Shown: positions 1,673 to 64,000, counted from the first letter of the stretch. The stretch: 64,000 nt of DNA from Psammoneis japonica (GCA_008632985.1 QPGO01000036.1:1-64000), one strand, 5' to 3'. Made by a program: numbers and translations. The notes: a model not told the origin generated them from the sequence alone.

Positions 1673-2109
1673 ACGGTAGTGGTCAGATTTCAAAATCTGA
1701 GCAATACAGAAATGTCAATGATGAATAAGGATTTTAGATTGCTTCTGCCGTAAATATCATTACGCCAATGCCACTAATGAATACACAAATGAATTTGTAT
1801 TCCATCCTTTTCCTGAACTTTGATCTATCGGCATTTTCGATACGAGTACTCGACGCGATGACAACAATGAGGCATGCTTGTATGTGTCATGGCCATAAGC
1901 TGTGAGGCGTACCGTCACATTTGGATTGAACTCGGGGATCTTGATGTCGAAAGTAGCCATTTGTTTGACATTCGTGATTTTTCATCGCCCACAAACTGGG
2001 ATTTCAACTGAGTCGAGTTGATGTTGGACGTGTTTCAAAGCACTGCGTTTGATGAAACAATTGAGGGCTCTGGAATTATGGCATTTTATGCCATGGAGAC
2101 TTAAAACAG

Positions 2110-4060
2110 TAAATGGGTTGACAATCAAGCAGTGATCGGGTTTGCCAACATTTCCAAAAATGTGACAACAAAAATTGCATCACTCAACAACCAACAACAT
2201 CTCAAGAGATGGAAACAAGAAAAGTGACTCCTCTTTGCACTTGAATTAAAAGAGACAACAATGCACAACAAACATTTGAGAAGGACAAGAAGCTCTTGAA
2301 TGCATGGAACCAGAAGAGAGTCAATGAATCGCTCTTGTTTTGAACCTCTTGACCTGTTCTGTCCATGATGGTGGTTGGTTGAAAGGTTGGTGGTGGTTTT
2401 TTTATGTGACTTGCAGCTTGAGGCATGTTGATGCATGAACACATGGCCCATGTGTGGTGTCACCTTTGGAAAGTGCCACTTGTGGAGCTTGAGTGGACAA
2501 CTCTCTGTGCTCAAGCTTTGTCCGCCAAATGCTCCATCAAAGTCCAGATGCTGCCACATCCCACCCGACCATTGACACAAAACAGTTCTTGCAAAATGTT
2601 GTTGCCTGTTTCCCTCTTCCTCTGCAGAGCAGCCCTCTTGGCGACAGTGCTGCCCACATGCCAGAATGTGCTCAAGAATGCTTTCCATTTTGCCAGCAAA
2701 GATGCCCAACGCGGGGCTGTGTGGGCTCGAATCTCTCTCAAGACAAGCTGACATTTGTGCCTGGCACTGGCGGCAATGCTGAGCCCTCCTTCCTGTTTGA
2801 CTTCCCAGGAGTGTGCCCAGATCTCCTGCGTGCTGAGTGGCTCAACCACAAGAGTCGCTGTCTTTGTCAGTTTTGTCAGCAGGATGTGCCAAGGCTGCTC
2901 TGGCCATGTGTGCACAAGGACAGCTGCGACAGGCTTTCTGCTGTCAGCAAAGAGTGTGAGCTGGCTGGACTGCCCAACCCCACACTTCACAGCTCCTTGG
3001 CAGTCACTCCAAATCAAGTGCCAACTTGGGGTCAACCGCACCTGGCTGGTTGCAATGCAAAGACAGCTGTGGCAGCACTTTGTGACAACAAAGAGAGTGC
3101 GAGCTGGCTGGGCTCCCAACCCCACACTTCACAGCCCCTCAGCACTGGCTCCCAATCAAATGCCAACTTGGGGCCAATGGCTGTGAAGCCATCATTGCAA
3201 ATCCCTGTGCCTGCCCCCTCACACAGCTTTGCACAGGGTCAACATGTGTGGCCTTTGCAAGATGGGCCCTGGCTGGCTGCTGGCTCCTCAGCCACACGGC
3301 TTGCACAACAAGCCACCACAACACAGAGCACTGTGGGGTGAGTGCAGCACAGCCCAAACAAGCACACCATGCTGAGATCACCCAGAGTTGGCTGCTGTCC
3401 TGGGGCTCCATTCAAAGCTAAGCTGGGCTGCTTGGCTCCTTGGTGTGCAGCACATGCTTGGCATCACATTCTTGTTGCCAAGCAGCCACATGGCATGTGC
3501 CCACCATTTGTGCCTGCAACAGCGACCCCAGCCACAAAGAAGCCAACAAAAAGTTGAACCTGGTTTTGTGGTTGAAGAGTGAAGAAACTGTGAGTGAAGT
3601 TTGGTTCAAGATTTGTTGGCAATGCCAAGTGGGCAACCAAAGAGAGGCACCAAAAATGGCTGTTCTCGCTCATTTCTCAAGAGGAGCTTGCGCTCATGAT
3701 GCAGGGTCTGAAGCAAGCACCAGCCAAGACAACAGTTTTTTTCTCTCTGCCCTGCTTAAAACACAGCCTTTGAGTCAATGTGGTGCTCCTTCAACAACTC
3801 ACGCACACTGGGAAGAGCAGCTGGAGCCAGGGCAGCTGGCCTGGCAGGGCTTGGCTGACACCCAAGCTGGGCTGCTCAGCCTGGTGGCACACACTCAGTG
3901 CCACATTGTCACCCTCCTGCAACTGCAATGTGCCCCACTCTTTGCACCTGCAGCAACCACCCTGGATCAAAAGAAGCCAGTGCAACTCTGGCCATGGTTG
4001 CATGGTCAATTGTGTGTGTGTGTTCAACGGTTGATTCCCCTCTTTTTTTCTCTTTTCCTT
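2110..4060. mobile_element. Degenerate repeat/transposon domain, TpA- and CpG-depleted
   Basis: Only 4 TpA counted in about 1.9 kb, none in 2405-3418; TG/CA-rich; overlapping Cys/His-rich, Tyr-free ORFs in all frames; family not identifiable. Confidence 0.6.
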
Positions 4061-4209
4061 TAACCGGCCACGAACATGAAAAAATTGCCGACATTTCAGA
4101 CATCATCTACATCTGCACTTTATCATCCCCTGTCCTAATCATTCAGTAGCTACTAGCTAGAGAGAGTAAAGACAAAGACAGGTTGTGCTTGGTAGTAGAG
4201 TTGTTTCTC

Positions 4210-15986: not shown

Positions 15987-16527
15987 GATCGAGAGGTTCC
16001 CGGCTTATGGATACTGCTACGGTAGCATCTTGGGACCAGGCAGTCGACTCTTGACCAAATGAGCAACATTAGGATAAGGCATGTAACCAGGACTTGCTTC
16101 TCCCGTCATTAGCGCTCCTGATGACAAAAAGCTTTTTGTACTAGGAAAGTGGGCGAGGTACCATTGGAGATTAAAGAAGGCGTGATACTTTAAGAGAGAT
16201 TAGATAGGGTTGTTGCGCAATAATACTCACACTTTCTGAGAAGGCGTTGACACGTTGACGTACCTTGAAATAGTGGATTTGCTTTTCGTTTGCGGGTAGA
16301 ACCCGTGGATGACCAGTCAAGTAGTGATAGAGAGAGCTGGTACCGCATTTCCCGGCTCCAACAGTCGTGAAACCTGGGAGGCAGTAGCCACTCAGATCAG
16401 GCTTTGGCACGTCAGAAAGAAGAGCGGAGTGTCGAGGGATCTCATGACACTCTAGCTTCAACGGGTCGTCGCGTTGTTGTTTGATAAGATTCGTCCAGTT
16501 ACATTAGCTGCTTCTTGGGGGTGGGTA
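15987..16527 (-). pseudogene. Partial inverted duplicate of the sulfotransferase gene at 34450-36102
   Basis: Reverse complement matches about 34779-35309, including the 76-nt intron; lacks both gene ends. Confidence 0.9.
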
Positions 16528-16960
16528 ACACACAACGGGTGTCGGGTGGTGCAGGTGTTGGCTGCTCACGCTGCATGGACCTTGCTCAGACCTCGCTGCT
16601 CGCTGCACTCAGACCTCGAGCCTCGTCGCGAAAATCTTCGCTGCGAGTCACGAAATTGGTGTTCGCAGTTGGAGATTCTGGGCGTGTGCTCCTTTTGTCT
16701 CCCTTCCTTGGCTGGAATGTGCTGCCGGCACCAATGGGCTGTTGGTTTGCACGATCTTTTCGATCCGTCGAAGGGCGATTCTCCCCCCCAATCAGACAAA
16801 CTGAGCTCACCATTACGACGTCAAGTGCTTGTAGTGGGCCTGCGATCAGCCTCTTTAGGTGGTTTGCTTGCGCGTCGCTTGGTGTGGAGGGTGATGCAGC
16901 CGGTGCTCATGGTTGGTTTTTGCGGTGTGCATGTGATAGATGTGATGGTGCTTATTGTTA

Positions 16961-17475
16961 CTGTAGAGTGCGCGAAACGTCAGAATTGCGCGTTGGCGAA
17001 AACCACAACTTTTTTTTCTCTCCTCCCGCAGCCGCACATCCCGAGTTTTGCAATTGACGACGCTTTTGGCCTCAAACGGCGGCGAACAAGGCATCGGTAG
17101 AACCGTAATCATTGTAAGAACATGTGTATTGCTTTGTTTGTGAAAATCCGTAATGAATTCGTCGAGAAAAGTGAGTCTCGTAGTCGTTTTGCGTGCAATT
17201 TCGCGTTGGGTGTTCCCGAGAACGCGATTGCTTTTTCGATTCAGCGTTGTCCTTGTACGGAGAAACGCTGAATCGCAGCTTTATTGTAACACATGTCTTG
17301 CCCATGTGCTGGATCTTGGGATGCGTCTGTCTCGGCGTCACGACAAATCGTTTTATTGCTCATTTTTTGGCCGCTGCTGTGTGTTGTGTTTGCCAGAGCT
17401 CATTGTTGTTGCTTCAAAGAGGATCCGCTCCGGGCTGTCCAAGGCGCGGAACGTCTCTTTGTTGTGTTTAAAAGA
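16961..17475 (+). repeat. Left terminal inverted repeat (515 bp)
   Basis: Reverse complement of 19031-19544 with 14 transitions and one homopolymer indel. Confidence 0.95.
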
Positions 17476-17528
17476 CACGTTCTAGATAGATTAGCTGGAC
17501 AGAGCACAACTGCATGTTTTAGTCTAGT

Positions 17529-18887
17529 CTAATGTGACACAGCTGCTCGAACAGCTGTGTTGAATCCTCCAACACAGCTGAGGAAGAATTCTTCCTCAGC
17601 ATCCCCCGTCTTCCTTTCCTGATTGTCATCGCACCCTGGCACCCCACACTTGCGAAAACAGTTCCTAGCTTTTCGTGGCGTCATCTCTTCCAATGCCAGC
17701 TCGTGCACCATTGACCAATTCATGCCTTCTTCATGAGAAAAACGCTTCAGGCCGGACTTGCAAACAGAGAAGCAGTGCTCAATTGGATTCAAATCAGGGC
17801 TGCAAGCTGCTGTGTAAACTGGCTTGGCTCCAGCATCTTCAATCAGTTGTCGAACGTAGTCAGAGATGTGTGTCGATGCGTTGTCCATCAGCACCACAGA
17901 CCACGGCTCGCAAAGATGATGCCTCCCTGGAACCGGCACCAAATCATTCTCAATGCATCTCTCAAACCTTTCCATGTCCACAGTCCCACGTTCCGGGTCA
18001 TTGTCATGAGGGCCATGTTCACGTTCTGCCAGCGTGCACGCTTCGATCACAAAACCGTTTGCATCTGCAGCACCAACAACGGCGCACCTCTTGCGAAAAT
18101 CTTCCTCAAAATGTGCATCAACTGCGGGTGGTTTGCCAAATTTTCCCCAGCCACGCAAACGCCTGGATGCGTTGGCACTCTTTGCCGTCTCATCAACAAA
18201 GATGGCCATCTCTGGTTTTTCTACGAACAACTCCAGCCGTCGAAAGCACCTCTCCCGCTTGGCCTCGCATCTTTGTCTTGAACGAAAAACCATTTTTTGA
18301 AGAGAGCAGCCCAGTCGGTGCAATTGACGCCACATGGCAGAGGGGTGCCATGTCACACCCCGGCGTCGTCTCATTGAAAGCTGCATTTCATCGAGATGGA
18401 GATGCGGCTTCTCTCTCACGATGTCAAGCAGCACTTCATCATCCACCTCTGAAAATGATGCAGCTCTTGTTGTCACTCTGCAATGCCTTTTCCAGCTGTT
18501 CATTCTACGGCGAGCAGCAGCTTTTGTCTCACCACACTGAAGGCAGTGGTGAAACCAGTCATAAAATGTCTTGCACTTGATCCTCCGGCCAAACATCTGA
18601 TCAACTTCTTCCCAAACAGATTTGAGAAGACGGATTTTCCCACCATCCTTCTGTGCATGCTGCCACGCATTGTCCCCCAGTTTTTCCATTGCAGTCTCAA
18701 CATGCTCCTTCTGCAGTTTCTTGTCGTCGTGCGCTGCACCGCCATGCCGTCCAGGTGCATTCGGCCTGTTGCATGTGTGATGCCGAACTCCGGGAGCAAC
18801 CCAAACCCCATGTGTCATGTCCCATCTTTGTGCCTCTCCAAAATTGTTGCCCTCCCCCGCAGCAAACAACTCAGCTGCTGTTGCCAT
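17529..18887 (-). CDS. DD34E transposase (DDE_3/IS630-like), hypermutated
   Basis: Motifs IFVDET, VLMDNASTH, ACSPDLNPIE (34 residues between second D and E); HTH region PHLHLDEM...RLGCS; conserved Tyr positions appear as Cys/His. Confidence 0.9.
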   Translation of the reverse strand: MATAAELFAAGEGNNFGEAQRWDMTHGVWVAPGVRHHTCNRPNAPGRHGGAAHDDKKLQKEHVETAMEKLGDNAWQHAQKDGGKIRLLKSVWEEVDQMFGRRIKCKTFYDWFHHCLQCGETKAAARRRMNSWKRHCRVTTRAASFSEVDDEVLLDIVREKPHLHLDEMQLSMRRRRGVTWHPSAMWRQLHRLGCSLQKMVFRSRQRCEAKRERCFRRLELFVEKPEMAIFVDETAKSANASRRLRGWGKFGKPPAVDAHFEEDFRKRCAVVGAADANGFVIEACTLAEREHGPHDNDPERGTVDMERFERCIENDLVPVPGRHHLCEPWSVVLMDNASTHISDYVRQLIEDAGAKPVYTAACSPDLNPIEHCFSVCKSGLKRFSHEEGMNWSMVHELALEEMTPRKARNCFRKCGVPGCDDNQERKTGDAEEEFFLSCVGGFNTAVRAAVSH

Positions 18888-19030
18888 GAGACATGGAAAG
18901 GTTGTTGCCACAGTCAACACTCGACAAAGCCTGCACTTCAAGTGACGAGAAAAAGGCAAACATGCCGTTAGATTGGCGATGATTTCACGACGCCAAGATC
19001 CCCGTTTTGAAAAATTCAAAGCAACGAATC

Positions 19031-19544
19031 TCTTTTAAACACAACAAAGAGACGTTCCGTGCCTTGGACAGCCCGGAGCGGATCCTCTTTGAAGCAACAA
19101 CAATGAGCTCTGGCAAACACAGCACACAGCAGCGGCCAAAAAATGAGCAACAAAACGATTTGTCGTGACACCGAGACAGACGCATCCCAAGATCCAGCAT
19201 GTAGGCAAGACATGTGTTACAATGAAGCTGCGATTCAGCGTTTCTCCGTACAAGGACAACGCTAAATCGAAAAAGCAATCGCGTTCTCGGGAACACCCAA
19301 CGCGAAATTGCACGCAAAACGACTACGAGACTCACTTTTCTCGACGAACTCATTGCGGATTTTCACAAACAAAGCAATGCACATGTTCTTACAATGATTG
19401 CGGTTCTACCGATGCCTTGTTCGCCGCCGTTTGAGGCCAAAAGCGTCGTCAATTGCAAAACTCGGGATGTGCGGCTGCGGGAGGAGAGAAAAAAAGTTGT
19501 GGTTTTCGCCAACGCGCAATTCTGACGTTTCGCGCATTCTACAG
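19031..19544 (-). repeat. Right terminal inverted repeat (514 bp)
   Basis: Inverted copy of 16961-17475. Confidence 0.95.
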
Positions 19545-19810
19545 TATACAAAAATTGTGTGGGATTCTACGCGGGTCTCCCTGGTCGCGGAATAGGGAAC
19601 AAAAGAAAGATCCGGACCGGACGTGACATTTTTTGGATGGGCGACAGGCGACAGGCGGCACAGTTACAAGTTCATTCAATCACAACTAGCCATCGCGAAG
19701 TAAGTGAGAGGAGTGAGGAGTGAGAGAGCAGGCTTAATAATTTGCGGGTTGCGGACTTGGTGGCAGAAGCAAACTGCTTATTCTGACGCCTCTCCCGCTT
19801 TCGGTCTGCA

Positions 19811-21657
19811 ATGACTCGAGAATACAGTGTTGCTTTCTTCAGTGTCTTTCGATTCATTCTGGTGATTCCTGCGTTATTTGTGGAGTCCACTTTGCCAGCA
19901 TTTTCCCACCGACACGCGACATCGAGCGCATTTTTGTCTGCTTCAAAAAGCTGCGCTTCTAGCAGCAACACCCGGATCAATATGGTCCGCTCTAAGTTAT
20001 CGTTCGGTTCTACGTCGCTTAAAGAAGATGATTTCAATACCACGATTTTGGTGGGCAAGAAAGAGAGTCTCTTAAGCTTCGTCCCTGGCAGACTGGATCT
20101 TGACTCTGATGTATCCACAGCCATGTTGGACTCAGTGTCTGGACCCAAGGGTAGCAGTGTTTCCACCTTTGGCGGAAAACCTCCCAAGAAGTTCGTTTTC
20201 TGCGTCTTGCCAGAGAAGACAACACGAAACAACCATCCCATGTCGGTGCACACCATCACCTCGTTGCTAAAGTCATCCTGTCCGGGCAAGGGAAATATCA
20301 AAGTGGTGATTGTGTCAGAAGAGCAAAAGGTTGCTCCTCTGGCATGCGCTGTAGGAAAGGCGTTTCCCGTATTCACGGAGAAAACTAGTGGGAGCGATAC
20401 TGATCAAGAGGTAGAGCGCGAAGTTGCAGTCAGTTTCGTAGACAAAGATGGTGCTCCCGTTGAAAGCCAAGACGTTCTCAAGGCTTGTGAGGCCGTGTCT
20501 GATTCAGTGCGTTTGGCGGCAAGACTGATGGATATGCCCCCCGAGCAACTTACGACCACCGCCTATGCAGAGGAGTGTCGTCAACTCGTAAAGGATTTGC
20601 CTCATACCACCATGCTTGAGATCACGGGCAAAGATCTCGACGAAAAAGGGTACGGCGGCCTGTACGGAGTTGGGAAAGCTGCTACTTATCCGCCACGCAT
20701 GGTGATCATGACGTACGACCCTCCGAACGTTGACAAGGAAGAGCCCGCTGTGGCTCTGGTCGGTAAAGGAATTGTCTATGACACTGGGGGTTTATCCCTC
20801 AAGGGGAAAACAGGTACGATCTTTGCTAGCAGTCGCAATGCCTACTAACGTGATCTCAAGCAGCGCCGTTAGCCAATAATCTCCGGTTTATCTCACGATA
20901 TAACAACCAAACTACTGTATTATAACAGGCATGCCAGGTATGAAGCACGACATGGGGGGATCGGCCGGCATACTAGGAGGATTTTGCGCAGCCGTCAAAT
21001 TGGGGACTCCCAAGAAAATCACATGCATCTTATGCTTGGCGGAAAACGCCATTGGCCAAACGCAGTCCGCAACGATGACATCTTGAAAATGTACAGTGGC
21101 AAGACAGTGGAAATCAATAATAGCGATGCGGTGCGTGCTTTTGGTTTTGCAGCCACTTGTACTTTGCAATAGTATCTCACAACCTAATGTATTTTTGAAC
21201 ACAGGAAGGACGTCTAGTCTTAGCAGATGGAGTCGCACATGCTACAAAACATATTGAGGGACTCGGTCTAGTCATGGACATGGCAACCTTAACAGGAGCA
21301 CAGCTCGTGGCGACAGGGAAAAAGCACGCAGGAATCCTGGCCAACACGGAGGAATTAGAAAAGCAAGCAGTGGCGGCTGGATTATATTCTGGCGACCTTT
21401 GCTTTCCACTATTGTATGCGCCGGAGCTTCTCAAGGACGAGTTCAAGTCAAAGGTGGCTGACATGAAGAATTCTGTCAAGGATCGTGGCAACGCCCAGTC
21501 TTCCTGTGCTGGTCACTTTATTGAATCTCATCTGCACACTGATTACAAGGGTGGATGGTTGCACGTTGACATGGCAGGACCAGGTACGCTGGAGGAACGT
21601 GGTACTGGCTACGGAGTAGGGCTGGTTGTTGCGGTATTGGGAGCTCCTGGATTCTAA
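19811..21657 (+). CDS. M17 leucyl aminopeptidase (NPEPL1-like), two introns, probable 1-nt frameshift near 21057
   Basis: VGKGIVYDTGG, MKHDMGG, NNSDA/EGRLVLADG, DMATLTGA, WLHVDMAG. Confidence 0.9.
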
Positions 21658-25565: not shown

Positions 25566-26888
25566 TTAAAATGGTGCATCACTGGTCAATGAAATTGTTT
25601 CCTTCGTCACAGGATGCCTAAAAGTAAGCGACTTCGCATGGACACACATTGCCTTGTCAGATGCTGCGTCCGCGATTCGCTTTTGCAAGTCTTCGGACAC
25701 GCGGTTGGGATTTGGGGCCATCTCCGCAAGTTCATCGGCCGAGAGTCCGCCATTGGGTGCGGCGTCTCCGTCGAGTCCATAAGTTGTATCGGCAACGATT
25801 GGATGCCCAAAAGCGGCGCAGTGAACGTTGAGTTGATGAGTCCTGCCAAGTATCATTCGAATACAACAAAAGAGATTGTTTGAGCGGTGTTGATGAGAAA
25901 CTACCACAATAACACCGAAACAAGAATGTCCTCTTACCTCCCAGAGACACTGGTTAAAGTTACTCTGGTGACAGGAAGGTCTTCGCCAAGGTCTTCTCGT
26001 GCAATGACCTTGTATTCTGTAACGCTGTCTTTAGGGGCTTCCAAAATCTTCTTTCCCACTACATCAGGGTCCAAATCAATAAGTGCACGTTGGTGGTCAT
26101 CGGTCGAAACACGCATATAAGGAGGGAACTCGTAGTCTCGCATTAGAGGAAGATTGATAGACCCCTCATCTTTCTCAATATTCCCGCAGAGGAGAGCTTC
26201 GTATTGTCTCTGAATCTTGCGTGTGCGAAAAAGGCTGTTCATACCACGGAGGGCGTCCATTGTCCTTGCAAAAACAACAAGCCCTGATGTATCCATTCCA
26301 AGTCTGTGAACAACCATCTTGTCCATGCGCCCCATCTCACAACCGAATGCGTTGAAGACGGCTTCATTTAAGGAGGGGTAGTTGTCCTTGCCAGGAACAC
26401 ACAACACACCAGAAGGTTTATCGACAACAACAATGTGCTCGTCTTCGTAAACAACCTTGATATCCTGAATAAAAAACAAATAAAAAAGTAATGTGAGAAC
26501 TAAAAGCGTTCTAAAAGGGCATTGTAACATTCTTCAACGATTCATGGCGGACTGCAAGCACGCAACGTCGTATCACAAACTAATTTTGAGTACAGTAGGT
26601 CCTGGCGCATAAAGTCAAGCCCCTTGTCCATCTTCGTTATTTAATGTGGTAACAGTACATAAACCTCGAACTGACCTCTTTTCCCAGCGATTTCGAAGCG
26701 CTATCCTTCTCCTTCAATTTCTGTAGTTGCTGTTCCAAGCGGGCTTGAAGATCCGTAGCACTAACTCCTGGGGCCTCAACAGTGCTCTTCATTGCTGTGG
26801 ACGGACGCCCAAGACCACGCGATGGTGAAAATGCATCGGATGAAGTGATCGAAGCAACAAGCAGCGATAAACCAAAAGCTAGACGCAT
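25566..26888 (-). CDS. RluA-family pseudouridine synthase-like protein, paralogue 1 (plastid-targeted, 2 introns)
   Basis: VDKPSG, HRLGMDTSG, RQYEAL, SGR/THQLNVH, GHPIVAD, CVHA; SDAF motif. Confidence 0.85.
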
Positions 26889-27786: not shown

Positions 27787-29358
27787 TTAGTTTTGGCGCA
27801 TGGCAGCACAGGCTACTTCGACCAGCGCAGGCAAGGACTGCCGCTTCTTGGGGGACAGGTCAGGAAGAGCAGAACCAAAAAGTTCTATCCCATCTGTTGT
27901 CGTCTTGCCTTTAAGGAGAGGCGTGGTGGGAGAGGGTGATACCAACGGTGGTACTGTAATCTGCTTCCTTGGAGTGACTAGGCACGACGGCAGATCGACG
28001 TTTCTCGGCTGTGGAGAGACCGTCCTCAGGCCACCGCCCTTGCCATGTTTCTCCATACTCATGATAAGCGGAAACGGATTCTCGATGTTGTCACAAGAGA
28101 CATGCGGAGGGGACGTGTGTCTTGGTGTCACAACTGCTGCGGTTCGCCCAGTCAAGTCGGTGCACTCTGGGGGTGACCTGACCGGAGTTGCCAGAGACAT
28201 AAGCTCTGGAGAGAACTGTTCTTGTGTTTCTTCTGGTCCTTGCGTTTGCTCTTCTGGTTCTTGCTCTTGGTGTTCTGGTGTGTGTGACTGGATGCACGGT
28301 TCTGTTGCAGAGCGTACGACAATACGGCTACTACGCTCCATAGTGGTTGCCAGAATGCTGGTGTCCACTGTTACCAATACCCCGGTAAGAGTTTCTCCAT
28401 CAGGTACGCTTTTTGCAAACGTGCCCTGAATGGTACCTGGAGCTTGAAGCATGACTTCCGTATATCCAGCAGGAGTGGAAAGGTTGAGGACTGCTTGGAA
28501 TGACATGGAGTGAGTGACTTCATAGCCGTCTCGGCGCTGCTTCTTCCCAGGCTTTTCCCCGGAAAAGTCACTGGATGCACTAACACGATCGGAGAGAACT
28601 CGGAAGCTTGTCTTCACGTCGATGATCTCGATAGACTCAGCCACTTGCTGGAGCGATAGTATGAGTCTGGCCTCGCTGGTCTTCAGGAGCGCCTCTAGAG
28701 CCGCACGTTTGCTGACTTCTTCAGGAGTTTCTTGTTCTTCTTTCTCTTGCGACGGTAGGCCTTCTTTCAGCTTCTGCACAATAGCCTGTTCCTTATGCAC
28801 TAAGGAGCGTGAGACCATGTATATCCATGTTTGAATCCTCCACAATAAAGCTTCTTGAAAAGATTCCATGACGTTCCTGGCCATAGCTTCAGCAGATAGC
28901 CGAAGCGCGTTTCGATCATCAACACTTAACGGCCTACCAAAGAGTTCAGCAGGAGTGACTGGAGACTCCAGCGATGGGACGGAGTCATCGCTGTCCGACT
29001 CAGAATGAAGACCAACAGGGGGAGGCGTAGATGGACGTTCTGAAGATGGTTTGAGTGAGAGTGAGGGACATGTAAACTTGAAGGCATCGCGAAGGAAGTG
29101 CTCCTGCGTTGTATTTTCTCGCGGCTCATTTCGAATCTCTTCTTCACAGAAAAGACTCTGAGGCGGAGGTTTGGATGAAAGGAGGCTCATAAGAAGCTGC
29201 GCTTCAGCACGAACGTCCCCATCTCTCGTAAGCTCCGCGTCATTTGTGAGCGATGTGCCTAACCTCGCTGCAAAACCTATCAACGCTAGCTGCTCCGACG
29301 TGATCCGGCTTTCTTCCGTCAGCCGCTCTGACGAGCTCAAGCTCCGCTTTGACGCCAT
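27787..29358 (-). CDS. Hypothetical Ser/Pro/Thr-rich protein (523 aa)
   Basis: Long single-exon ORF with normal composition; no recognised domain. Confidence 0.65.
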   Translation of the reverse strand: MASKRSLSSSERLTEESRITSEQLALIGFAARLGTSLTNDAELTRDGDVRAEAQLLMSLLSSKPPPQSLFCEEEIRNEPRENTTQEHFLRDAFKFTCPSLSLKPSSERPSTPPPVGLHSESDSDDSVPSLESPVTPAELFGRPLSVDDRNALRLSAEAMARNVMESFQEALLWRIQTWIYMVSRSLVHKEQAIVQKLKEGLPSQEKEEQETPEEVSKRAALEALLKTSEARLILSLQQVAESIEIIDVKTSFRVLSDRVSASSDFSGEKPGKKQRRDGYEVTHSMSFQAVLNLSTPAGYTEVMLQAPGTIQGTFAKSVPDGETLTGVLVTVDTSILATTMERSSRIVVRSATEPCIQSHTPEHQEQEPEEQTQGPEETQEQFSPELMSLATPVRSPPECTDLTGRTAAVVTPRHTSPPHVSCDNIENPFPLIMSMEKHGKGGGLRTVSPQPRNVDLPSCLVTPRKQITVPPLVSPSPTTPLLKGKTTTDGIELFGSALPDLSPKKRQSLPALVEVACAAMRQN

Positions 29359-30099: not shown

Positions 30100-30360
30100 A
30101 CGAGCTCTCACGCCCAGCTAGACCCTCTACTCTCTAGTCTAGAGTACCGGTAGAGCTAGCTCTACTCTCTAGTAGTAGTAGCTCTAGCTAGTAGTAGTAG
30201 CTAGCTCTACTCTAGTAGAGAGAGTCGTCTCGCTCGCTAGACGGTAGGGACTACCCTATCTCCTCTCTCTCCTCTCTAGCTAGCTAGCTACTCTAGTAGT
30301 ACAGTAGAGTCGGAAAGGTATGTAGCTGCGCGTAGGCCGTCCACTCTAGATAGATGTTTG
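30100..30360. repeat. CTAG/TAG/AGAG low-complexity tract
   Basis: ctctagtctagagtaccggtagagctagctctactctctagtagtagtagctctagctagtagtagtagctagc... Confidence 0.8.
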
Positions 30361-37665: not shown

Positions 37666-40600
37666 TCACTGTCCTGCCGGTGCAAACCTCTGGTCCTTGT
37701 TGTCACAACCCCCAAAATGAAACCCCCAGCTGGACCCACAGGCTGTCACTTCTTCCACTGCAAAATGTGCACCACAGGCATGCATCATGGCACTTGTTTG
37801 AAAGCCAAGCACAGAGCTGGGGCGACGTGCCAGAGGCGCCAAAAATGATCTCATCTCCCGCGCTCATCTTGCTCCAGCCCAAGGAGGTGGCTTTGACTGC
37901 AGCAGCAAGAGGAAATGCAGAGTCCAGAGGAGCAGAGAATGTGACACCAAGCACCCCACAGGCACCCCAAGTCAAACTCTGGTGGACAGGGTGCAAACTG
38001 CAGCACTGACCTCAGCTCCAACAAAGCAAGTCAAGAGGCAGCACAATGAGCCACAGAGAGAGAGCAGCAGACAGAGCCGGGCAGCCATCTGCACATGACT
38101 CTGCAGCAGATGACAATGTGTTGTCAGCTTCAGGGATTGCAGTCTTCAACAGTTTGTGAGGGTGTGTTGGCATTTGGCTGCAACAACATGTCAAGTGAGC
38201 ATGAAGAAGAGAGAAGAGCACAGTCACTTCATTGTTCATTTGTGCAGAGTTGAAATGATGGTGCCACATTCTGTGATGATTGATTTCAAGTCAGCATCTC
38301 CCAGACACATTCCTGAGTCACCAGATCCTGCCATCACACATGCACACACACACTCTCTTGCACAACTTAGCTGCATTCCCTTCTTCATCACAATGATGAT
38401 TTGAAGCTTGCTCTGCAGTCATTGGTTGCCTGGTTTGGCAATGCATGTCATTTGCTGTGCAAAGTCTTCTTGAGCTTCCTGCAACAAAACCCCCAGCTTT
38501 CTTTGCCATTTTCCAGTCATTTTCTTCATGTGCTTTATGCTGCAGTCTGCAGCTTTCTTCTGTTGTCTCCCAGATGTAGTGGGGTCAAGATGGGGCTCTG
38601 AACAGCACAACTGGGGCCAAGTCAAAGGTTCATGGCTTGCCAACTGGCAAAAAAAGCCAGCAACTCATGCAGTGCATCTGCAAGAGATAAAACAACAAAT
38701 GTGCTAGATGTGCAACAAACTCTGGACTTGCTGAGTTGGCAGTGCACAACAAACCTTTTGCAAATGATGATGTCATCTGATTAAAAACAAGATCAACCAA
38801 AGCTGTGTTTTGTGCATGACAATTGACCCAACAGACAACAACACACACGTCTGTGAATTTGACCTCATCAAGATTTCAAGCATTGCATGTAGAGTGAGGC
38901 CAGATCCACAGACACTTTTGTGCACCATGCAACCCCTGTTTCTGACATTGTTGCATGCATGGTGTTCACTTCCAATGGTGCATTCCCTCTTTAATTTCTT
39001 CAAAAAAGCAGCCCAAGTGCCACAATGCATTGCTCTGTTTTCCAGAAAATGTGTGATGTTTTTCCCTTGGTGCCAAATTTCCTTCACCAGCATGCATTTG
39101 TTGTCAAACAACAAACTGTGGTGGGCACTGAAAAATCAAAATGATGTTGCTTTCATGGGTTGGAAGCAGCACCATGTTGGCAATTGCAAGGACTGGTGCC
39201 AGCAAAAGGTGAGACTTGTGCAACCAACAATGGAGTCAAAAATGTTTTGCAAAAGATTGTGCGTGCTTGTGAGAACTCGTGCAGGCTCAAGTGTCTGCTC
39301 TTCACATGCAGCTGAGCTCTTGCATGGCTCTTCTTGGAGATTGTCTGCACGGCATGGCAACAGCAATTGGAAAGAAATCAAGAGCTTCAAGAAGTGGCAT
39401 GGATTCTCTGCAGGGACTTTGAGAAGGGATTGCAGCACACAGCTGTGGACTGACTGTGGCCCCGGCCATTTGCACTTTGAACAAAAAACTTCAACAAGGT
39501 CAGTGACTTTTCAAAAAAGTGTTGGACTTCCAGTTTTCATCTCAGCCACAGATCTCAAGGTCCAACACAGTTTGCTCAGAAAAGCAGCAAGCCTTCAATG
39601 GTTTTAACTTGAGCAGGTCCAACAGTTTTTTTAAATGCTTGACCTCCATGGTTTTTGTGTGGACCTCAGATCTTGTCAAGGGTCAGCAAATCTTTTTAAA
39701 AATGTGAAAGATCTTCATGGCTTGCATGCCCTGACATCAGACATCAAAATGTGACCTCCAATGAGCCAGATCTGCAATGATTTTGTCTGGCCTCAGACAT
39801 TGAGGGACAAAGGTTTTTTCAAAATAGTGTCAGACATTTGACAGCTTTCATCCAGACCTCAGAGACCTTGAGATCCAACTGCTTTTTTCTAAATGACACA
39901 CCAGACCTTTGACAGTTTTCATCTGGACCTCTCTAACCTTGAGGCATGTGGTGGTTTTGCAAAAAGGGCCACAGACCTTCAATGGTTTTTTGTTTGAAGC
40001 TCAGACCTTGAGGTCTGATGTTTTTCTCAAAACAGCAGCACACCAGACCTCCAATGGTTTTCTTTGTCTGCACCTCAGACCTTGAGGTGTGATGTTTTTT
40101 TTTTCAAAACAATCTCTGATGGCTTTGGTCCAGAGTTCAGACCTTGCTTCAGGTGTGACAGTTTTTCAAAACAGCACCAGACCTCTGATGGATTTTGTTT
40201 GGACCTCAGACCTGAAGGCATCATGTTGCTTTTTTCAAAAAAGTTTCAGACCTCTGATGGTTTTTGTCTGGACTTTGGGTCTGTGTCTTTGTCCAAATGT
40301 CCCACTCCGGCATGTTGAGATCCCACCTTGAGCCAAAGTGCATCATGTGCGAACAATGCCCAGCCTGACAGCATTCAGAGGTTGCAGGCCAGGCATTTCC
40401 AATTGTTGCCATTCTTGGCTGTGCATCACTCACAGATTCCAAGTGGCTTTCCAACTTTTCCAAGCAGGTTCTGCATCATTCGCAGAGATGTTCAATTTGT
40501 CCAGCAGGCGCCTGCTGGGTTTTGCTGCATCTCTGCTTGATTTTGGCATTGGGAACAAATCACACAGCACCACCTCATGCAACTCTCTCAGCACCCTCTC

Positions 40601-41140
40601 TGCTCACACTTTGTTTTCTTGAACAGTTTTGTGCAGGTGCAACTTTTTGTGTTTTGGTGCAGACACAAAGGCAGCCACAACAAATGTGCAAGACACAGCG
40701 TTCTAAAAGCCATTTGGACAATGAACACACAACAGCTTGAACCTAATCTGTGGGACAAGGGACAAGGTCATTGAAGACATTGGAGCTGAGGACAAAGTGT
40801 CAGTTGTCAACTGCCGCAATCTGCAGAGGACTCTGTGCCAGCAGCCATCCATCACACCCAATGCTCTCAAGGTTGTTTCATAATTTCAAAAGCCTGGGAA
40901 CTGCTGGAGGTGCCCCCAAGATGAGCCACAACCCATGCAAAGGTGCTGTTGTAACACATTTTAGCTCTGTGGGCACAACACTCCTTGCTGGTCTAAAGCA
41001 TTTGCAGTTCTCTTCTCATGGCGGCCTTCCAATTGTGAATTGTGAGGATGTCACTGAGGCGGCTTTTGACCGAGAATTTTTGCATTGCCATTGCACACTT
41101 TTGTGACTTCTGTCCCAGCATTTTGCAATGGATCCCTCTT
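37666..41140. mobile_element. Degenerate DNA-transposon domain (possibly hAT-like), TpA/CpG-depleted
   Basis: Near absence of TA and CG; internal 60-bp tandem array; minus-strand remnant WVNCHAQNTAL resembles the hAT CxxH motif (weak). Confidence 0.55.
39490..40280. repeat. Degenerate ~60-bp tandem array, about 12-13 units
   Basis: Consensus-like cagacctctgatggttttgtctggacctcagaccttgaggt...ttttttcaaaa recurring. Confidence 0.85.
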
Positions 41141-49694: not shown

Positions 49695-50110
49695 CTATTG
49701 CTGCTCGACAAGCCAGTTAAGAATGTAGTCGTCAAAGTTTGGAAGAACGTCGCCTCCATCGAAGTTAGCATGCCCCCCTGTATCAAAAGTGACAAGCTTG
49801 GTTTCATTGTGTACCATATATCGTGATGATAATTGGTGTGGCACTAATGGATTATCCCTGGCCCAACACATTTGAACATGAGGGTGCAAAAGCCCCTGAC
49901 TGTATCGCTACATTCGGTTTCATCCAGGAAACTAGCCGGATGCATAATGACTGCACCTGCTGCATGTAATCTTAACGGGCCTCCTTTCTTTGCTGCATCA
50001 GAGAGCATCGTAAATCCAATCCTCCAGACCAACTTTTCACACCCAGATGAAATGGCTTTCACTTGACACCCCACCCAAGCCCTTCTTGAATCACCGCATG
50101 TGAATGATCC
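49695..50110 (-). pseudogene. Alpha/beta-hydrolase-like C-terminal remnant at the edge of a mutated domain
   Basis: QMCWARDNPLVP...KLVTFDTGGHANF resembles the acid/His region of alpha/beta hydrolases; frameshifted; upstream part runs into TA-depleted DNA. Confidence 0.45.
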
Positions 50111-53100
50111 TCAGGCAGCTTTCTCAGACTTGTTGAAAGAATCCCTTTGCCCGCTCTTTTTGATGGGTGGGATGCAACTGTAAAAACTCCTCCCATTGTG
50201 ATTCTGATGGCACCGAAAAGATGTGCTTTGCAAAACATGGTGAATGGTGAGAAACTCTTTGAATCGCTGTGAAGCGTGCGCACTGGTTTGTTGTGATGTC
50301 GGTCGTCTGCGCATGCTTTTCAGGCGACCCCAGTGGGAAGATGGCGCAGGTCTGTCCATTTGCAAACACCAAAGGACCCCGATTCAATCGACCTCCACCT
50401 GCCTGGACAGTGTGCCAACTGACTGTCCACAGTGACTGTTGATGCTGTGCCTTTGAGACAACAAAAACCTGCCATCATGCTGAACACAGTGCCAGGATCA
50501 ATTCAAATTTCACACGCACAGCCTGCGGAATTGCGCGCGACAACCACCCCTTGTTCGCACTGCTGCATTGACTGCACAATGTCCACTTCTCACTTTTTTC
50601 TGACGATTTTTGAAATTGTCACAATGTGCACCTTTTGTTTTTTCTCCATTTCCTGTTTATGTTCTTTTTCCCACTGCCACCTTCTGTCCATCCCATCTGC
50701 ACTTCTGGGCCAGCCTTTTTCTCCACACTGCTGCCCCTTCTGCTCTCCACTGCCAGCCCCAGCCACCACACATGCTTGTGCTTTTCCCCCAAACCATGCT
50801 GGCAACAAGAAGAAGCAGAGCATGTGAAAGAGAAAAAAAGCTGCTGTGGCTTTTGGGCTGGCAACAACAAGCTCCCCAAAGCTGTTTGGGCAGCTTGCAG
50901 ATCTGCAAACATTGCCTTCACAGTTGCTGTCAGTTTTGACAAGAATCAAATGCAAAAGACCAACCTGCCAATCTTTTTGGAGTTGTCCAGCTTGCTGCTG
51001 CAAAGTTTTATTGCTTTGAGTTTGTGGTGCTGCCAGAGCTGTTTGGAGATCTTCTGAAGCTCTGGTGAGATTGCATCAACCCAGCTGAAAAAACAATGGT
51101 GGGTTGTGGCATCTTGTTGTTGTGACTGCCACTTGTTTCTGGCGGCATGCTGCACACCATTTTCAACACAAACAGAATTTTGAATTTTTCTGCCCATCAA
51201 ATTGAGTCATCAACGGATGTGGAAACTCTTCCCTTTTTGCAATTTTTTTTCTTTCGAGTTCTCTTTGGAACTCTGCAGTGGTGCTGGAGCAACTTGAGGG
51301 TGTTCAGAAGCTCTGATTTTGCAAAACAACACAAATCAACATGAGTGGCACATTGCTGCAATGGCAGTTGGCACCATGTTTTTTCCCACTGAATCTTTCA
51401 AATGTGCTTCTCTTGCCTGTTTTCTTCATTTGGTGGCACCCTTGTGGTCTGATCTGATGTTGCTTCTCATGGTGACTTGTGTTTCATTGTCAAAGAGACA
51501 AGTGGAGCTCTGCACACACTCAGGATGTGGCCCAAAAAGCTGGGTGCAAAAATGGAAGAGGTCCAAGATTTGGGTGTGTCCCCAGCCCTTTTCTTGAAGA
51601 AATCACCCCAGCTTCTGTTGGCTTTGCCTGACTTTTCTTGTGGCCCGATCTGGCATTGCTTCTCATGGTGACATGGTCTGTTGCTGTGGAGCCTTGGTGA
51701 TCAAATTGTTCTTGAGCAGGATCCACATGTGAGGGCTCTTGGAAGTTTTGCACCTTCATGCCCCGTGGTGCCATGGGTGCACCTGCTCCATCTCTCAGAC
51801 TGTCCCGGGCTGTGGCTCTGGCTGTGGGCATTGTTCTGATTAACTGGCCAGCTGGCACCCTGTGCTGCAGAGACATCTGCTCCATCTCTCAGACTGTTGA
51901 GCACTGTGGCTCTGGCTGTGGGTGTTCTTTTGATGGACTGGCCAGCTCACCTGTGCTTCTTTGTCAAAGAGTGATGAGCAAAGCTCTGCACACACACTCA
52001 GGATCTTGGGCTGGTCCCATCACAAGACACCAAAATGGAGGAGGCTGAAGATTTTAAGATCATGCTAGGCCTTGCATTGAGAAAGAATCAAACCATCTCA
52101 GTTCCCCCACTGTCTTCGCTTGCTGTCCCCCCCTCGTGGTCTGGCCACATTTCTCATGATGATGGTCTGTTGCTGCAAAGCCTTGGTGGTGGTCAAACTC
52201 ATTTTCAAGCAAAAGCCACATGGCATGTTTCATGAGTTGCACACCTTCACGCACCACAGATGCTCTGAAGAACCAGCAGGCCTGCGGGGAGCATTGATCA
52301 CTTGTCTTTTGTTGTGGGTGTGTGCCGTTGGGCGCTGCATTGCCCGTGCGTGTGCAGGTGCCTGCCGTTGGGGCCAGCATTGCAGCAGCAGAGTGGTGGG
52401 GCCGCCTCACTGGCAACACAGAGGACCATTGTGTTTGAGAGCTCATGCCAGTTTTGGGGCTGCAGCGCGGTGCACGGACACTCTTTTTTGTCCAACTTGC
52501 CGACAAAATGGTGCGCTGCACAAACTCACTCATTTTTTGACATGTTTTTCCCAGTGTGACTGTTTTGTGTGCAATTCATCACAAATTCTCTTCACACAAA
52601 GCTCAATGCATTTTTCAACATGCCATGCCAGCAATCCCAATTTTGCGGTCCTTTGGAGCTCTTCTGAAAAACAGTTCCACGCCCCCACAGGGAGGGAATT
52701 TGTTGGTTCTTTTGGGAAGTCCCTGTGACCTCCAATGTCCTCAATGATCATTCGCTGAGTCCGAACAATTCATTTGCACTGAACAACACATGCTGTTCCA
52801 AAAAACATCCGAGGGACACACTTTCAAATTCGGACCGACCCCCGACTGCCCGACTGCCCGACCCCCCGACGGACACAAAAAAGAAAAAATTGTCATGCGT
52901 GATGCATGGCGCATGGGAACAACTTATCGGCGACTGGCGTGGTGCCAGCTCAATGGAAAAATTCAAGTCAGAAGTGTAAAAAACATGCCAGAGCCTGCGC
53001 CACTGGTGGCGCAGAATGGTTCAGGGTGCACACAAATTTTGTGCCACAGTGGCGCATGTGATTTTTGTGCGACACTCTACACGCGCCCAGTGGCGTAGAC

Positions 53101-54425
53101 CCAGTGCAAAAACAACAAATTTTTGAAGTCTTGTGGCATGCAAAGTCAGCATGTTGTGGCGTAGATTCGACATCAACAAGGCTTCACGCAACACTCGCAA
53201 CAACCAAGACAACAGAAAACCGCTCGCAAAATCTCGCTCCCACTTCACACATTGCAGCTGATGTGGTGTTGTTCATTTGTCTCACTCGTTTTCATCGTGG
53301 AACCTCCTGATGACACAGGGTGTCTTTCAGGCATGTGCATCGGTCTGATTGCCCCCCCTCTTTGGGCAAGAATGGGGTGTGTGGTTTGCTTTTTGAAGAC
53401 ACCAGACCAGCCACAAGGATGAGCTTGCAGTGGAGAGCTGGCAAGCAAAGAAGCACTGGGCTGTGCCACAAGGCACTGGCTGATGGGACAGCATTGGGCA
53501 AGCACAACCACAAGCATTTTCCTGAGGGCACTTTGCACCACATGTGACAAAGCCAGAAACATGGACTGAGAAACACAGACAGAGCCAGGTTTTGCTCAGC
53601 TGGCCACCCAGAATTCAAGCAGGGGTGCAGCCGGAATGAAGAAGGCTGCAGGTCAATTTGAGGTCCCAGTGGGAACTTGCTTTGCATGTTTGTTGACAGC
53701 CTGCTGCAGAAGCCGTGGCTGCACTGGAAATCCAAAGGTGGCTTTGCGTGGTGGGGAGGATCTCGCAAATTCTCTCAAGATTTTGCGACGCATGAGGCCA
53801 AAATTTGGGTGCAGCATCCACAGATGCTTTGGGAGAGATGCTGTGAATTTGTCAAGGCAGGCACTTCTGACAGCATGGGTGGGGAAGGCCAGTGCTTGTT
53901 GCCAGGGATCTTTGTGAAGATCTTTTGAAGAGGATGACACTGCATTTTCTCGCTTGGAAACTTCAGAGAATTGTTTGAACACAGTGGGGCCAAACCCGCC
54001 AAAGTGTGCATTGAATTTTGGAGAACAAAGAAGACACAAATCCGTGGCAGTGGCCACCAAGCTGGTGGGGCAAGGCTTGGAAAACAAGCTGCCCAAAAAG
54101 CCATGATGGGCTGGCAGCAAAACACTCCTCACAAAAGATGCCACTGTCAAGCTGCCACAGACTGGCACAACTCCACAGTTCTCCAGCATGCTGTGGGAGC
54201 TTTGCTGTCAAGCATGTAAAACCACAGCACCTCAAGTCACAGACAAGCTGCTTTGCAGGCAGAAGCCCAGCCAAGGGCCGCAAGTCAACAGCCCCACAAT
54301 GTCTTCTCTTTTTCTCCTTTTTCCTTCTTTTCCTCTCTCTCTTCTCCTTTTCTCCTTTTCAGTTCATTCTTCTGGGCCGCCTCCGGCGGCCACCTCTTTC
54401 ATTCTTCCCACATGCCGAAATCTCG
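49990..54425. mobile_element. Nested degenerate transposon domain, TpA-depleted
   Basis: Extreme TA depletion; internal diverged direct repeat; subterminal-like motif clusters at 52824-53165; many spurious Cys/His ORFs. Confidence 0.6.
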
Positions 54426-61893: not shown

Positions 61894-63025
61894 GATGAGT
61901 ACTAGCTAGTTGTCGTCATCGGGGCGTGCTTCTTGCTTCAGCATTCCCTCTCGGGCTTCTCTTCACATTTTTTGAGCCTTGTTCTCTCGTTTTTGAGATG
62001 ATGATGTGATTCTTCGCGAAAGTTACCGTGCGGTGACACTCACGGACTGAATCCAGTCCATGCGTCTACTCGAGCTACTACTCTATGGCATCCTAGTGGG
62101 GGTCTAGCTGGTGCCGCTGGTGCCCACACCAAAGAGACAAACCCACAACAAAAGGCAAAAACAATGGTCCTCAACAAAGTTCCTAAGAATGGCCACAGTT
62201 AAATGTGGGCAATCTGTGAGTCACACCACCCAAAATGAGAAGCAAGACCCCCCCTCTGGGTGCCCTCCTCCTGCCTGCCTTGTCCCCCTGCCCCCTCCTG
62301 ACAACACCATCACCGCAGCTGATCCAACACAACTGAGAATGTTCATTGGTCAAATCAGCTGGAGTTGCAGCATCAAAGATGGGAAGTGGAACATGCCACA
62401 TTGCCAAAAACCAAAACACTTGATGAGGATGGCCAGCCAGAGTTTTGGACTTTCTCCGCCAATGCCAAGGGCAGCAACACAACCCCAGTGTCGGGTTTGA
62501 TTTGAAGCAAAACAACACAAAGTGTCAACTGCCACCCTTGGAAGAAAAAATTTCAAAAACCATGGTTTGCATCCAAAGAATGTGACGAAAAGAAGGAAAG
62601 GAGCCTTGCTGAGTGAATGAGCAGGGACAATGACAACTTCCACACTCTCTGTTGAACAAACCATTGGGGAAGCTTTTGTCAGACAAGGGACAAAATGCAC
62701 TCAAAAGAAGGATTTTGCTGAGCTTGTAGAATGTCTCAGCAAAGCACCTGAATGCACGAGCTTGGAGACTTCCATTGATGCCAACATTTGTGGCCCACAA
62801 GCTGCGCCATCATTGCACATTGTGAAGGAATGGGGAGGAGGACAGGGCAGCACCTTTGAGGATCTGCTGCATGGTTTTTTGGACTGAGAACTTGGGCATT
62901 TGTCTGAAAACTGGTCCTTGATCTCTCAGCTCCTTGGCCCATCATTTTCCTCAAGCTCAAGCTGCCAGGAAAACACTGCAAGGCCAACAAAGGACCACGA
63001 TGAGAGTTTCCACTTGAGGGCCAAC

Positions 63026-63347
63026 TGCAGCATGCATGCAGACAAAAGGTTATTTTTGTCACGCCCTTTGTGACATTTAAACTGTAACACGTCGCCGTGA
63101 TACATTAACTCTTATTAGTAGCTGTATATTGCACTCCTCCCCATGTATCACGCGCAGAACTAATGTGCACTGACACTGCACGTTTTTGGCGGAACAGTGT
63201 GGGTACGTACAAAGGAACATACAGAACTGCACAGAGTTTTACGCGTTCGACAGTGATCAACGTTGCTGCAGACAACTCCCACTCAGGGTTTCGAACCCCT
63301 GGCCTCCTGCCTAATGGTCACGCATTGAACCACTCCGCTATGAATTC
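63026..63347 (-). mobile_element. tRNA-derived SINE-like element
   Basis: Minus-strand head gaattcaTAGCGGAGTGGttcaatgcg...GGTTCGAAACCctg with Pol III A box (63330-40) and B box (63287-97); cloverleaf imperfect, so not a functional tRNA. Confidence 0.7.
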
Positions 63348-63460
63348 ATAATGCAGCATGCATGCAGACAAAAGGTTATTTTTGTCACGCCCTTTGTGAC
63401 ATATAAACTGTGACACGTCGCCGTGACACATTGACTCTTGTCAGCAGCTGTGTGTTGCAC
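63026..63460. repeat. 109-bp direct repeat (63026-63134 and 63352-63460)
   Basis: tgcagcatgcatgcagacaaaaggttatttttgtcacgccctttgtgaca... occurs twice, with 9 differences. Confidence 0.95.
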
Positions 63461-64000
63461 AACCTCTTCATCAGCAGCAACACAGCATCACAGCAACATT
63501 TGGTTTTTTGATGCACATGGGTGCACTCACATGGCACCAACCAGTGAAACAAATGAGCTGTGTTGTGATCTTCCAGCTGTGCAGATTGCTGATTTTAAGG
63601 TTCAGCTCTCCATCTCCAGTTCTCTGAATGGGACAAAGAAGCTGCAGTCTCCTCCAGAAATGCCTCACCTTGATCTGCCTCTTCCAAGCCAGAGCACTCT
63701 ACTTGCTGATGACTTGTTGCATTTTTCAGGTCCATCCTTGGGGTTGCTTTTGTGCGGTGCATCGTGCGGCATGTCACACAAAGCTGCTTCAACCACGACC
63801 AGATTTGAGAAGTTTGTTTTGGTCAATCAGCTCGGAGCCACTCCTTCATCCCAGCAGAGGCCACAGGGCCTCATTTTTCTTCCAATCAAATCATCAACCA
63901 GCAAAAAGCAGCCACAAGTGGCTGACAATGATCTGACCTCAGCAGATGCACTGCACCCGGTGCTTCTGGCATGTCAGAAAATGACAGAACTCCCCTCTTC

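Follow-up and report, generated by a model that had tools for sequence, protein, structure and literature searches.

A stretch of 64,000 nucleotides (nt) of nuclear DNA from the diatom Psammoneis japonica (GCA_008632985.1 QPGO01000036.1:1-64000; hereafter the window) was analyzed, with emphasis on a Tc1/mariner-type DNA transposon whose transposase gene has lost nearly all of its TA dinucleotides. The whole element extends over 16961-19544 and consists of a gene between inverted repeats, with TA on both sides. The left terminal inverted repeat (16961..17475, plus strand, approximately 515 nt) begins CTGTAGAGTGCGCG, and the right terminal inverted repeat (19031..19544, minus strand) ends ...CATTCTACAG; the two arms are 97-98% complementary. 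The ends of the element read CTGTAGAG..., and TA adjoins each of them. The left TA target-site duplication (16959..16960) is found in the sequence ...ATTGT-TA-CTGTAGAG, and the right one (19545..19546) in the sequence CTACAG-TA-TACAA.

The transposase gene is located on the minus strand. Its open reading frame (ORF) occupies 17529..19019 and has 496 codons when counted from a TTG; the first ATG, at position 18887, gives a coding sequence of 452 amino acids (aa) at 17529..18887, which ends with the stop codon TAG. The Pfam domain DDE_3 was detected at residues 273-426 (63 bits, E = 3.5e-17, cut-off 28.6). The catalytic residues D276, D379, and E414 are all in invariant or conserved columns of an alignment with six relatives, and the spacing of 34 residues between D379 and E414 is that of the Tc1-type DD34E transposases. 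The N-terminal helix-turn-helix was weak, both matches being below the cut-offs (HTH_33, 21.3 bits, cut-off 25; HTH_32, 14.9 bits, cut-off 33.7). No second copy of the transposase was found in the 64-kilobase (kb) window by tblastn, and an Rfam search across the window gave zero matches. The element is a complete Tc1/mariner-type DNA transposon. It shares the DDE_3 domain, the DD34E spacing, the terminal inverted repeats, and the TA target duplication with the Tc1/mariner (IS630-Tc1-mariner) DD34E group, and it differs from this group in its unusually long inverted ends, in the helix-turn-helix matches below the Pfam cut-offs, and in the replacement of family-conserved tyrosine (Tyr) residues described below.

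Loss of TA and of conserved tyrosines

The observed/expected (o/e) ratios of TA, TG, CA, and CG in the ORF were 0.09, 1.59, 1.52, and 0.71, respectively, and eight TA dinucleotides were left in its 1491 nt. The TA o/e of the homologous coding stretch in 17 related metagenome loci was 0.50-0.88. The closest of these loci (match 590-1747) showed a TA o/e of 0.50, a Tyr share of 3.1%, a cysteine (Cys) share of 2.3%, and one in-frame stop, and it may be a mildly affected copy.

An earlier note on this DNA, made from the sequence alone, had counted 3 Tyr and 23 Cys in the 496-aa frame and had proposed that Tyr sites conserved in the family had become Cys or histidine (His) through the change of TA to TG or CA. 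Recounting gave the same composition, with 25 His (3 Tyr, 19 Cys, and 24 His in the 452-aa version), and the four motifs quoted in that note are all present in the translated ORF: PHLHLDE at aa 205, RLGCS at aa 235, ACSPDLNPIE at aa 405, and NCFRKC at aa 453. A word-indexed search yielded eight relatives, and the six with 41-56% identity were aligned with the ORF (34-53% identity in the alignment; 49-56% in BLASTP for five of them and 41% for P0006). At the 13 columns in which the majority of the six relatives has Tyr, the window copy has Cys at six, His at four, phenylalanine at one, and Tyr at two, and all ten Cys and His codons at these columns are TGC or CAT. The consensus residue was kept at 2 of the 13 Tyr columns versus 175 of the 229 other columns (Fisher p = 1.3e-5). 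Further replacements agree with those predicted from a change of TA to TG or CA, namely isoleucine to methionine (ATG), isoleucine to threonine (ACA), leucine to proline (CCA, twice), and valine to alanine (GCA, twice). The alignment thus bore out the proposed exchange of Tyr for Cys and His at ten of the 13 consensus-Tyr columns.

An exhaustive HMMER search gave 2713 relatives, and the Tyr share was compared among the best 150 representatives. Their median was 4.0% (5th-95th percentile, 2.3-5.6%), and the share in the window copy was 0.66%; a lower value was found in one of the 150, a 166-aa fragment. Low Tyr shares were also seen in two fragmentary relatives from the public protein library: P0237 (261 aa), with Tyr at 0.8% and Cys at 5.4%, and P0246 (166 aa), with Tyr at 0% and His at 6.6%. 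These may be hypermutated copies of other organisms that have been called as genes.

Direction and dinucleotide specificity of the change

The two arms of the element differ by 16 substitutions, 15 of which are transitions. TA is set against CA or TG in nine of the 16, one of them a TG-versus-CA doublet at the same dinucleotide, and two of the 16 are of the CpG type (CG against TG or CA). Sister copies were examined in public sequencing runs of one sample, whose contigs were aligned to the locus at a likeness of at least 80%. The transposon family is multi-copy, since 156 contig pieces were obtained in run X1, of which 41 were at least 99% alike to the locus, 45 were 95-99% alike, 40 were 90-95% alike, and 30 were lower; run X3 contributed no pieces. 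Among the 40 best-supported differences, the window copy has TG or CA against TA in the other copy in 15 cases and the reverse holds in one; three differences are TG/CA doublets and nine are of the CpG type. At four of the 40 (aa 43, 83, 429, and 454), the other copy encodes Tyr and the window copy Cys or His. The less mutated copies that the earlier note had proposed for comparison therefore do carry TA, and Tyr at these four positions.

Back-mutation of the ORF, also proposed in that note, was carried out with a profile built on the six relatives; every single transition in the ORF was scored, and a gain of more than 0.5 bit was regarded as raising the score. Among the reversions of TG or CA to TA, 37 of the 186 non-synonymous ones (20%) raised the score, and their combination increased it by 86 bits (from 539.9 to 625.9). 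The corresponding values were 17 of 164 (10%) and 26 bits for reversions of TG or CA to CG, and 23 of 604 (3.8%) and 26 bits for the remaining transitions. When all 48 Cys and His codons were naively reverted to Tyr, the gain was only 9.8 bits, because many of the Cys and His residues are genuine. The score-raising reversions comprised 19 of TG to TA and 18 of CA to TA. No clear strand bias suggesting transcription-coupled damage was found either in these reversions or in the numbers of Tyr-to-Cys and Tyr-to-His replacements (6 and 4).

The change runs from TA to TG or CA, as the relatives have Tyr at the Cys and His columns and copies in the same sample have TA. Together with the arm differences and the reversion scores, this shows TA to be the ancestral state, lost in the window copy or in its lineage. 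In the standing variation the changes are mostly A:T to G:C at TpA, with a smaller share of CpG-type and other changes.

TA-depleted domains across the window

The window was scanned with a 1-kb dinucleotide profile and, for domain borders, with a 300-nt sliding scan. The 1-kb profile revealed sharp-edged stretches with a TA o/e below 0.1 and TG and CA o/e of 1.6-2.0, versus a background TA o/e of approximately 0.6. In the 300-nt scan, six domains with a TA o/e of 0.05-0.11 were delimited, which amount to 13.3 kb, or 20.8% of the window. The core of the depleted domain of the element is at 17501..19200 (TA 0.11, TG 1.56, CA 1.50, CG 0.72). The other hypermutated domains are at 1901..4100 (TA 0.08, CG 0.23; of unrecognisable origin), 37701..41100 (TA 0.08, CG 0.11), 50001..54400 (TA 0.05, CG 0.33), and 62101..64000, the last of which is made up of the pieces 62101-63100 and 63401-64000 (TA 0.10-0.11, CG 0.20-0.26) and reaches the end of the window. 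These four non-transposon domains have TG and CA o/e of 1.4-1.9, sharp borders, and overlapping long ORFs on both strands. The target is mobile DNA in the case of the element, and the other domains have no recognisable origin.

The CpG o/e was 0.11-0.33 in the other domains, in contrast to 0.72 in the transposon domain. Two processes have acted on this DNA, namely a faster loss of TA and a second, slower decay of CpG, and the domains with CpG loss are the older ones. The TA process is the faster of the two because the young element, whose ends are 97% alike, is nearly devoid of TA while its CG o/e is still approximately 0.7.

The left flank of the element (16531..16958) is repetitive and depleted in TA (TA 0.27, TG 1.40, CA 1.44), and the summed contig depth climbs from approximately 54 to 170-450 at 16670-16924. 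This flank is possibly an older, already mutated repeat that received the element. The right flank is normal, with a TA o/e of 0.58. An inverted duplicate of 504 nt (16027-16530 and 34777-35280; 95.6% alike) has TA o/e of 0.76 and 0.87, and TA-type changes account for four of the 22 differences between its two copies. Duplication alone therefore does not seem to be a trigger, since this duplicate is not TA-depleted and shows few TA-type differences. Elsewhere in the window, 30001-31000 is the only kilobase in which TA exceeds expectation (TA 1.18, TG 0.77, CA 0.86), a pattern opposite to that in the depleted domains.

Maintenance of the open frame and lengthening of ORFs

The earlier note had argued that the process removes TAA and TAG and leaves the frame open, and that mutated domains generate many long false ORFs. 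The single changes that create a stop codon in the transposase ORF were counted. None of the 379 A-to-G and none of the 351 T-to-C changes gives a stop (0 of 730 together), whereas 24 of the 447 G-to-A and 19 of the 311 C-to-T changes do. The open frame thus needs no selection, because A-to-G and T-to-C changes cannot make TAA, TAG, or TGA from a sense codon. The number of TAA and TAG per 1000 six-frame codons was 18.4 in the background, 4.3 in the other domains, and 6.4 in the interior of the element; for all stop codons together it was 37.8 in the background and approximately 27-28 in the depleted stretches.

The numbers of ORFs with a length of 75, 120, and 200 codons or more in the other domains (11.9 kb) were 85, 22, and 6, respectively. 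First-order Markov simulation gave 72, 17.6, and 1.7 with the composition of the domains and 35, 4.7, and 0.11 with that of the background. In the simulation, the mutated composition thus yields twice as many ORFs with 75 or more codons and approximately 15 times as many with 200 or more. Long ORFs are two to fifteen times more numerous in mutated domains than expected from the background composition because TAA and TAG have been lost, and both arguments of the earlier note are upheld by these counts. Its further suggestion, that such ORFs may be raw material for de novo genes, is speculative. When 90 ORFs with a length of 75 aa or more from the left flank and the other domains were compared with Pfam, no match reached a cut-off, and three ORFs gave weak sub-threshold matches. 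In the 1.5-kb transposase stretch, the six frames contain ORFs of 496, 303, 188, and 170 codons, and an antisense ORF of 301 aa within the transposase gene (17675..18580, plus strand) is most likely spurious.

Sequence context of TA survival

The survival of TA was expressed as the domain/background ratio of NTAN tetranucleotides, for which the background was assumed to represent the original composition of the domains and the counts were small (0-15 per class). The ratio was 0.61 for TTAA, 0.26 for CTAA, 0.19 for ATAA, 0.14 for CTAG, 0.12 for GTAA, 0.11 for CTAC, 0.03 for ATAT, 0.02 for ATAG, 0.02 for GTAC, and 0.00 for ATAC. According to a hand calculation, these ratios fit additive per-strand rates that are determined by the nucleotide following the adenine on its 3' side and decrease from T-A-Y (Y, pyrimidine) through T-A-G to T-A-A. 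Among 24 directly observed sites, 17 were T-A-Y versus a base rate of 55%, which is a trend only (p = 0.08). A 3'-neighbour preference of the process is possible. T-A-pyrimidine is the context of the adenine in the tRNA anticodon loop that is edited by TadA/ADAT enzymes.

Genes and repeats around the element

The neighbouring genes are eukaryotic and encode an M17 aminopeptidase, an HCF101-like protein, a Lys2-like reductase, and an ion channel. When the best 120 relatives of the HCF101-like ORF were inspected, all named matches were from diatoms, at 63-73% identity, and none of them was a very close relative; the named matches include Seminavis, Entomoneis, Nitzschia, Cylindrotheca, Odontella, Pseudo-nitzschia, Amphora, and Mayamaea. 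The M17 aminopeptidase gene (19811-21654, plus strand) adjoins the transposon and is composed of at least four coding pieces separated by gaps of roughly 40-80 nt, which are consistent with small introns. The Lys2-like reductase (57965-61893, minus strand) has an AMP-binding domain followed by PP-binding and NAD_binding_4 domains and is divided into two ORFs, which share 7 nt (59662-59668); this split may reflect a very short intron, a frameshift, or an error in the assembly. A pair of direct repeats of approximately 540 nt with 72% identity was found at 25933-26467 and 31198-31732. A 523-aa ORF at 27787-29358 is unexplained and gave no usable match in the protein atlas.

Discussion

The Tc1/mariner-type (DD34E) transposase gene described here, in the nuclear genome of a diatom, has very probably been struck by TpA-specific A:T to G:C hypermutation. 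The transposon copy would be targeted at TpA either by the host or by a process that is limited to silenced or foreign DNA, and TA would become TG or CA according to the strand on which the adenine is attacked. Tyr codons (TAY) would then be converted to Cys (TGY) or His (CAY) codons, ATA to ATG or ACA, CTA to CCA, and GTA to GCA. TAA and TAG would be erased, the frame would stay open without selection, and missense changes would pile up at conserved sites of the protein. The same process would have marked approximately one-fifth of the window in sharp-edged domains, the older of which would also have become depleted in CpG. We infer that the chemistry may be adenine deamination on DNA, as has been suggested for Bigelowiella natans, and that the hypermutation may act as a defence.

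Several points weigh against this interpretation. The evidence is standing sequence throughout, and no mutation was observed de novo. The ancestral states depend on conserved columns because the relatives are only 34-56% identical, and the reversion test picked score-raising sites greedily, by the same rule for every class, with a profile from only six relatives. The differences tabulated between copies are the 40 best supported of 273, and over all X1 differences the asymmetry is milder (from window to other copy, 55 C to T, 63 G to A, 47 T to C, 33 A to G, and 61 transversions); other copies evidently carry hits of their own. The runs of the sample may be the source data of the assembly, so that they reveal sister copies and give no independent confirmation of the letters. 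A contig piece of 165 nt that is identical to the window copy has approximately four times the single-copy depth, which may mean that the window copy was multiplied once it had been mutated. TA depletion is weaker in the inverted ends (TA o/e 0.39 in the left and 0.30 in the right) than in the interior, for which no explanation was found. Finally, the frame is open and all three residues of the DDE triad are retained. This last point also bears on the view in the earlier note that transposable elements are crippled by missense rather than by nonsense: missense changes are indeed found at conserved sites, and as for the crippling itself, the transposase, which retains its catalytic triad, is probably inactive.

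The same footprint could be left by T-to-C chemistry, starting either from a modification of the TpA thymine, such as oxidation to 5-hydroxymethyluracil by an enzyme of the TET/JBP type, or from the misreading of a modified adenine. Because TA is palindromic, T to C on one strand is indistinguishable from A to G on the other in the comparisons of arms, columns, and copies. The context dependence of TA survival fits a thymine-directed enzyme as naturally as an adenine-directed one. We consider this chemistry unlikely.

It is decidedly improbable that the family is natively poor in TA and Tyr, for example through evasion of a TA-directed host process or nuclease, and encodes a working transposase. 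A working enzyme would agree with the open frame, the intact D276, D379, and E414, the inverted ends that are 97% alike, and the many copies in the sample (41 of the 156 contig pieces being at least 99% alike). Native poverty in TA is contradicted by the copies in the same sample that have TA and Tyr where the window has TG or CA and Cys or His, by the differences at TA sites between the two ends of the element itself, by the replacement of 10 of the 13 family-conserved Tyr residues together with the gain of 86 bits on reversion, and by the higher Tyr share in 149 of the 150 representatives.

Deamination of 5-methylcytosine at CpG, which would turn arginine (Arg) codons of the form CGY into TGY (Cys) or CAY (His), has left traces here: the ORF has a CG o/e of 0.71 and the other domains have values of 0.11-0.33, two of the 16 arm substitutions set CG against TG or CA, and 17 of the 164 reversions to CG raise the score, an example being the Arg-to-tryptophan change at aa 373. 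As the source of the whole TG, CA, Cys, and His excess it is highly improbable. CpG deamination is unable to remove TA; the relatives have Tyr, not Arg, at the Cys and His columns; 18 of the 28 consensus-Arg columns are still Arg in the window copy; and reversion to TA gains three times the score of reversion to CG. It is refuted as the sole cause because TA has been lost, and it remains as the second, slower layer. An artefact of sequencing or assembly, or RNA editing that became fixed through a retro-copy, deserves practically no credence, since the public-run contigs show the same letters at the locus, the pattern is limited to sharp domains, and the inverted ends and TA duplication mark the element as a cut-and-paste DNA transposon rather than a retro-copy.

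TpA-specific A:T to G:C hypermutation is a kind of mechanism that has already been described in one distant alga. In mutation-accumulation lines of Bigelowiella natans, the mutation rate of two integrated viral regions is approximately 1000-fold that of the remaining genome, and 230 of 231 mutations in them were A to G or T to C, all at TpA (Mettrop et al., bioRxiv 10.64898/2026.01.13.699255). In the same text, TpA-depleted coding sequences are reported to be enriched for 'DDE superfamily endonuclease' and reverse transcriptases, and an ADAT2-like adenine deaminase is proposed by homology alone (bioRxiv 10.64898/2026.01.13.699255). The window resembles what is described there in the TA to TG or CA changes, in the depletion of TpA and enrichment of CpA and TpG in clustered 1-kb windows, and in the many unannotatable ORFs in clusters; DDE-endonuclease and reverse-transcriptase genes are TpA-depleted in that alga. 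Under the preprint's thresholds (at least three 1-kb windows), with TG and CA scored separately here and by a combined formula there, 38001-41000 and 50001-54000 qualify. The element is too short for them: 18001-19000 qualifies (TA 0.07, TG 1.62, CA 1.55), and 17001-18000 has TG 1.31 and CA 1.40.

The present case differs from B. natans in several respects. The host is a diatom (Stramenopila) and not a chlorarachniophyte (Rhizaria), and the footprint is far denser: it covers 21% of the window and includes two qualifying runs in 64 kb, as opposed to 124 clusters in approximately 95 megabases. The target is a multi-copy transposon, whereas the main region in B. natans is single-copy viral DNA. 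The older domains are also depleted in CpG, and a term search of the preprint text gave zero mentions of CpG, tyrosine, cysteine, or stop codon. The mutations were seen de novo in B. natans and only as standing variation here. What is new is the host lineage, the density of the footprint, and a classifiable transposon with less mutated sister copies, and further the layering with CpG decay, the possible 3'-neighbour preference, and the quantified effects on proteins and on ORF calling.

Two other forms of decay of mobile DNA are related. Fungal repeat-induced point mutation (RIP) converts CpA into TpA, enriches TA, and creates stop codons. It is likewise a transition-only, dinucleotide-specific decay of mobile or repeated DNA that renders elements unrecognisable to similarity searches, but its direction is opposite to that observed here, where the TA o/e is 0.09 and there are zero stops in 496 codons. 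The CpG decay of methylated transposons resembles the loss of CG with gain of TG and CA in the older domains, but it leaves TA alone, unlike the change in the young element (TA 0.09-0.11, CG approximately 0.7). PMC4504042 was set aside as irrelevant, as TA is treated there only in relation to nucleosome positioning. A full-text literature search found no report of TA to TG or CA decay beyond B. natans or in diatoms.

The occurrence in a diatom suggests that TpA hypermutation is widespread. A broader reading is a serious, if still tentative, possibility: diatoms would run a fast DNA-level TpA defence on mobile and foreign DNA, a mirror image of RIP that is shared with Rhizaria. In the same reading, adenine deamination would be the probable chemistry, the process would be faster than CpG decay and would prefer T-A-pyrimidine, it would be ancient in the SAR (Stramenopila, Alveolata, and Rhizaria) supergroup or repeatedly acquired, and diatom gene catalogues would be filled with Cys/His-rich orphan 'genes'. 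Several diatoms are transformable, and the diatom system is tractable for the study of the process. Reversal of TG and CA to TA in the style of 'deRIP' could recover transposon families that are missed by similarity searches, and ORFs in mutated domains will be called as orphan, Cys/His-rich genes. The loss of TA, complete where that of CpG has just begun, provides a relative clock for insertions.

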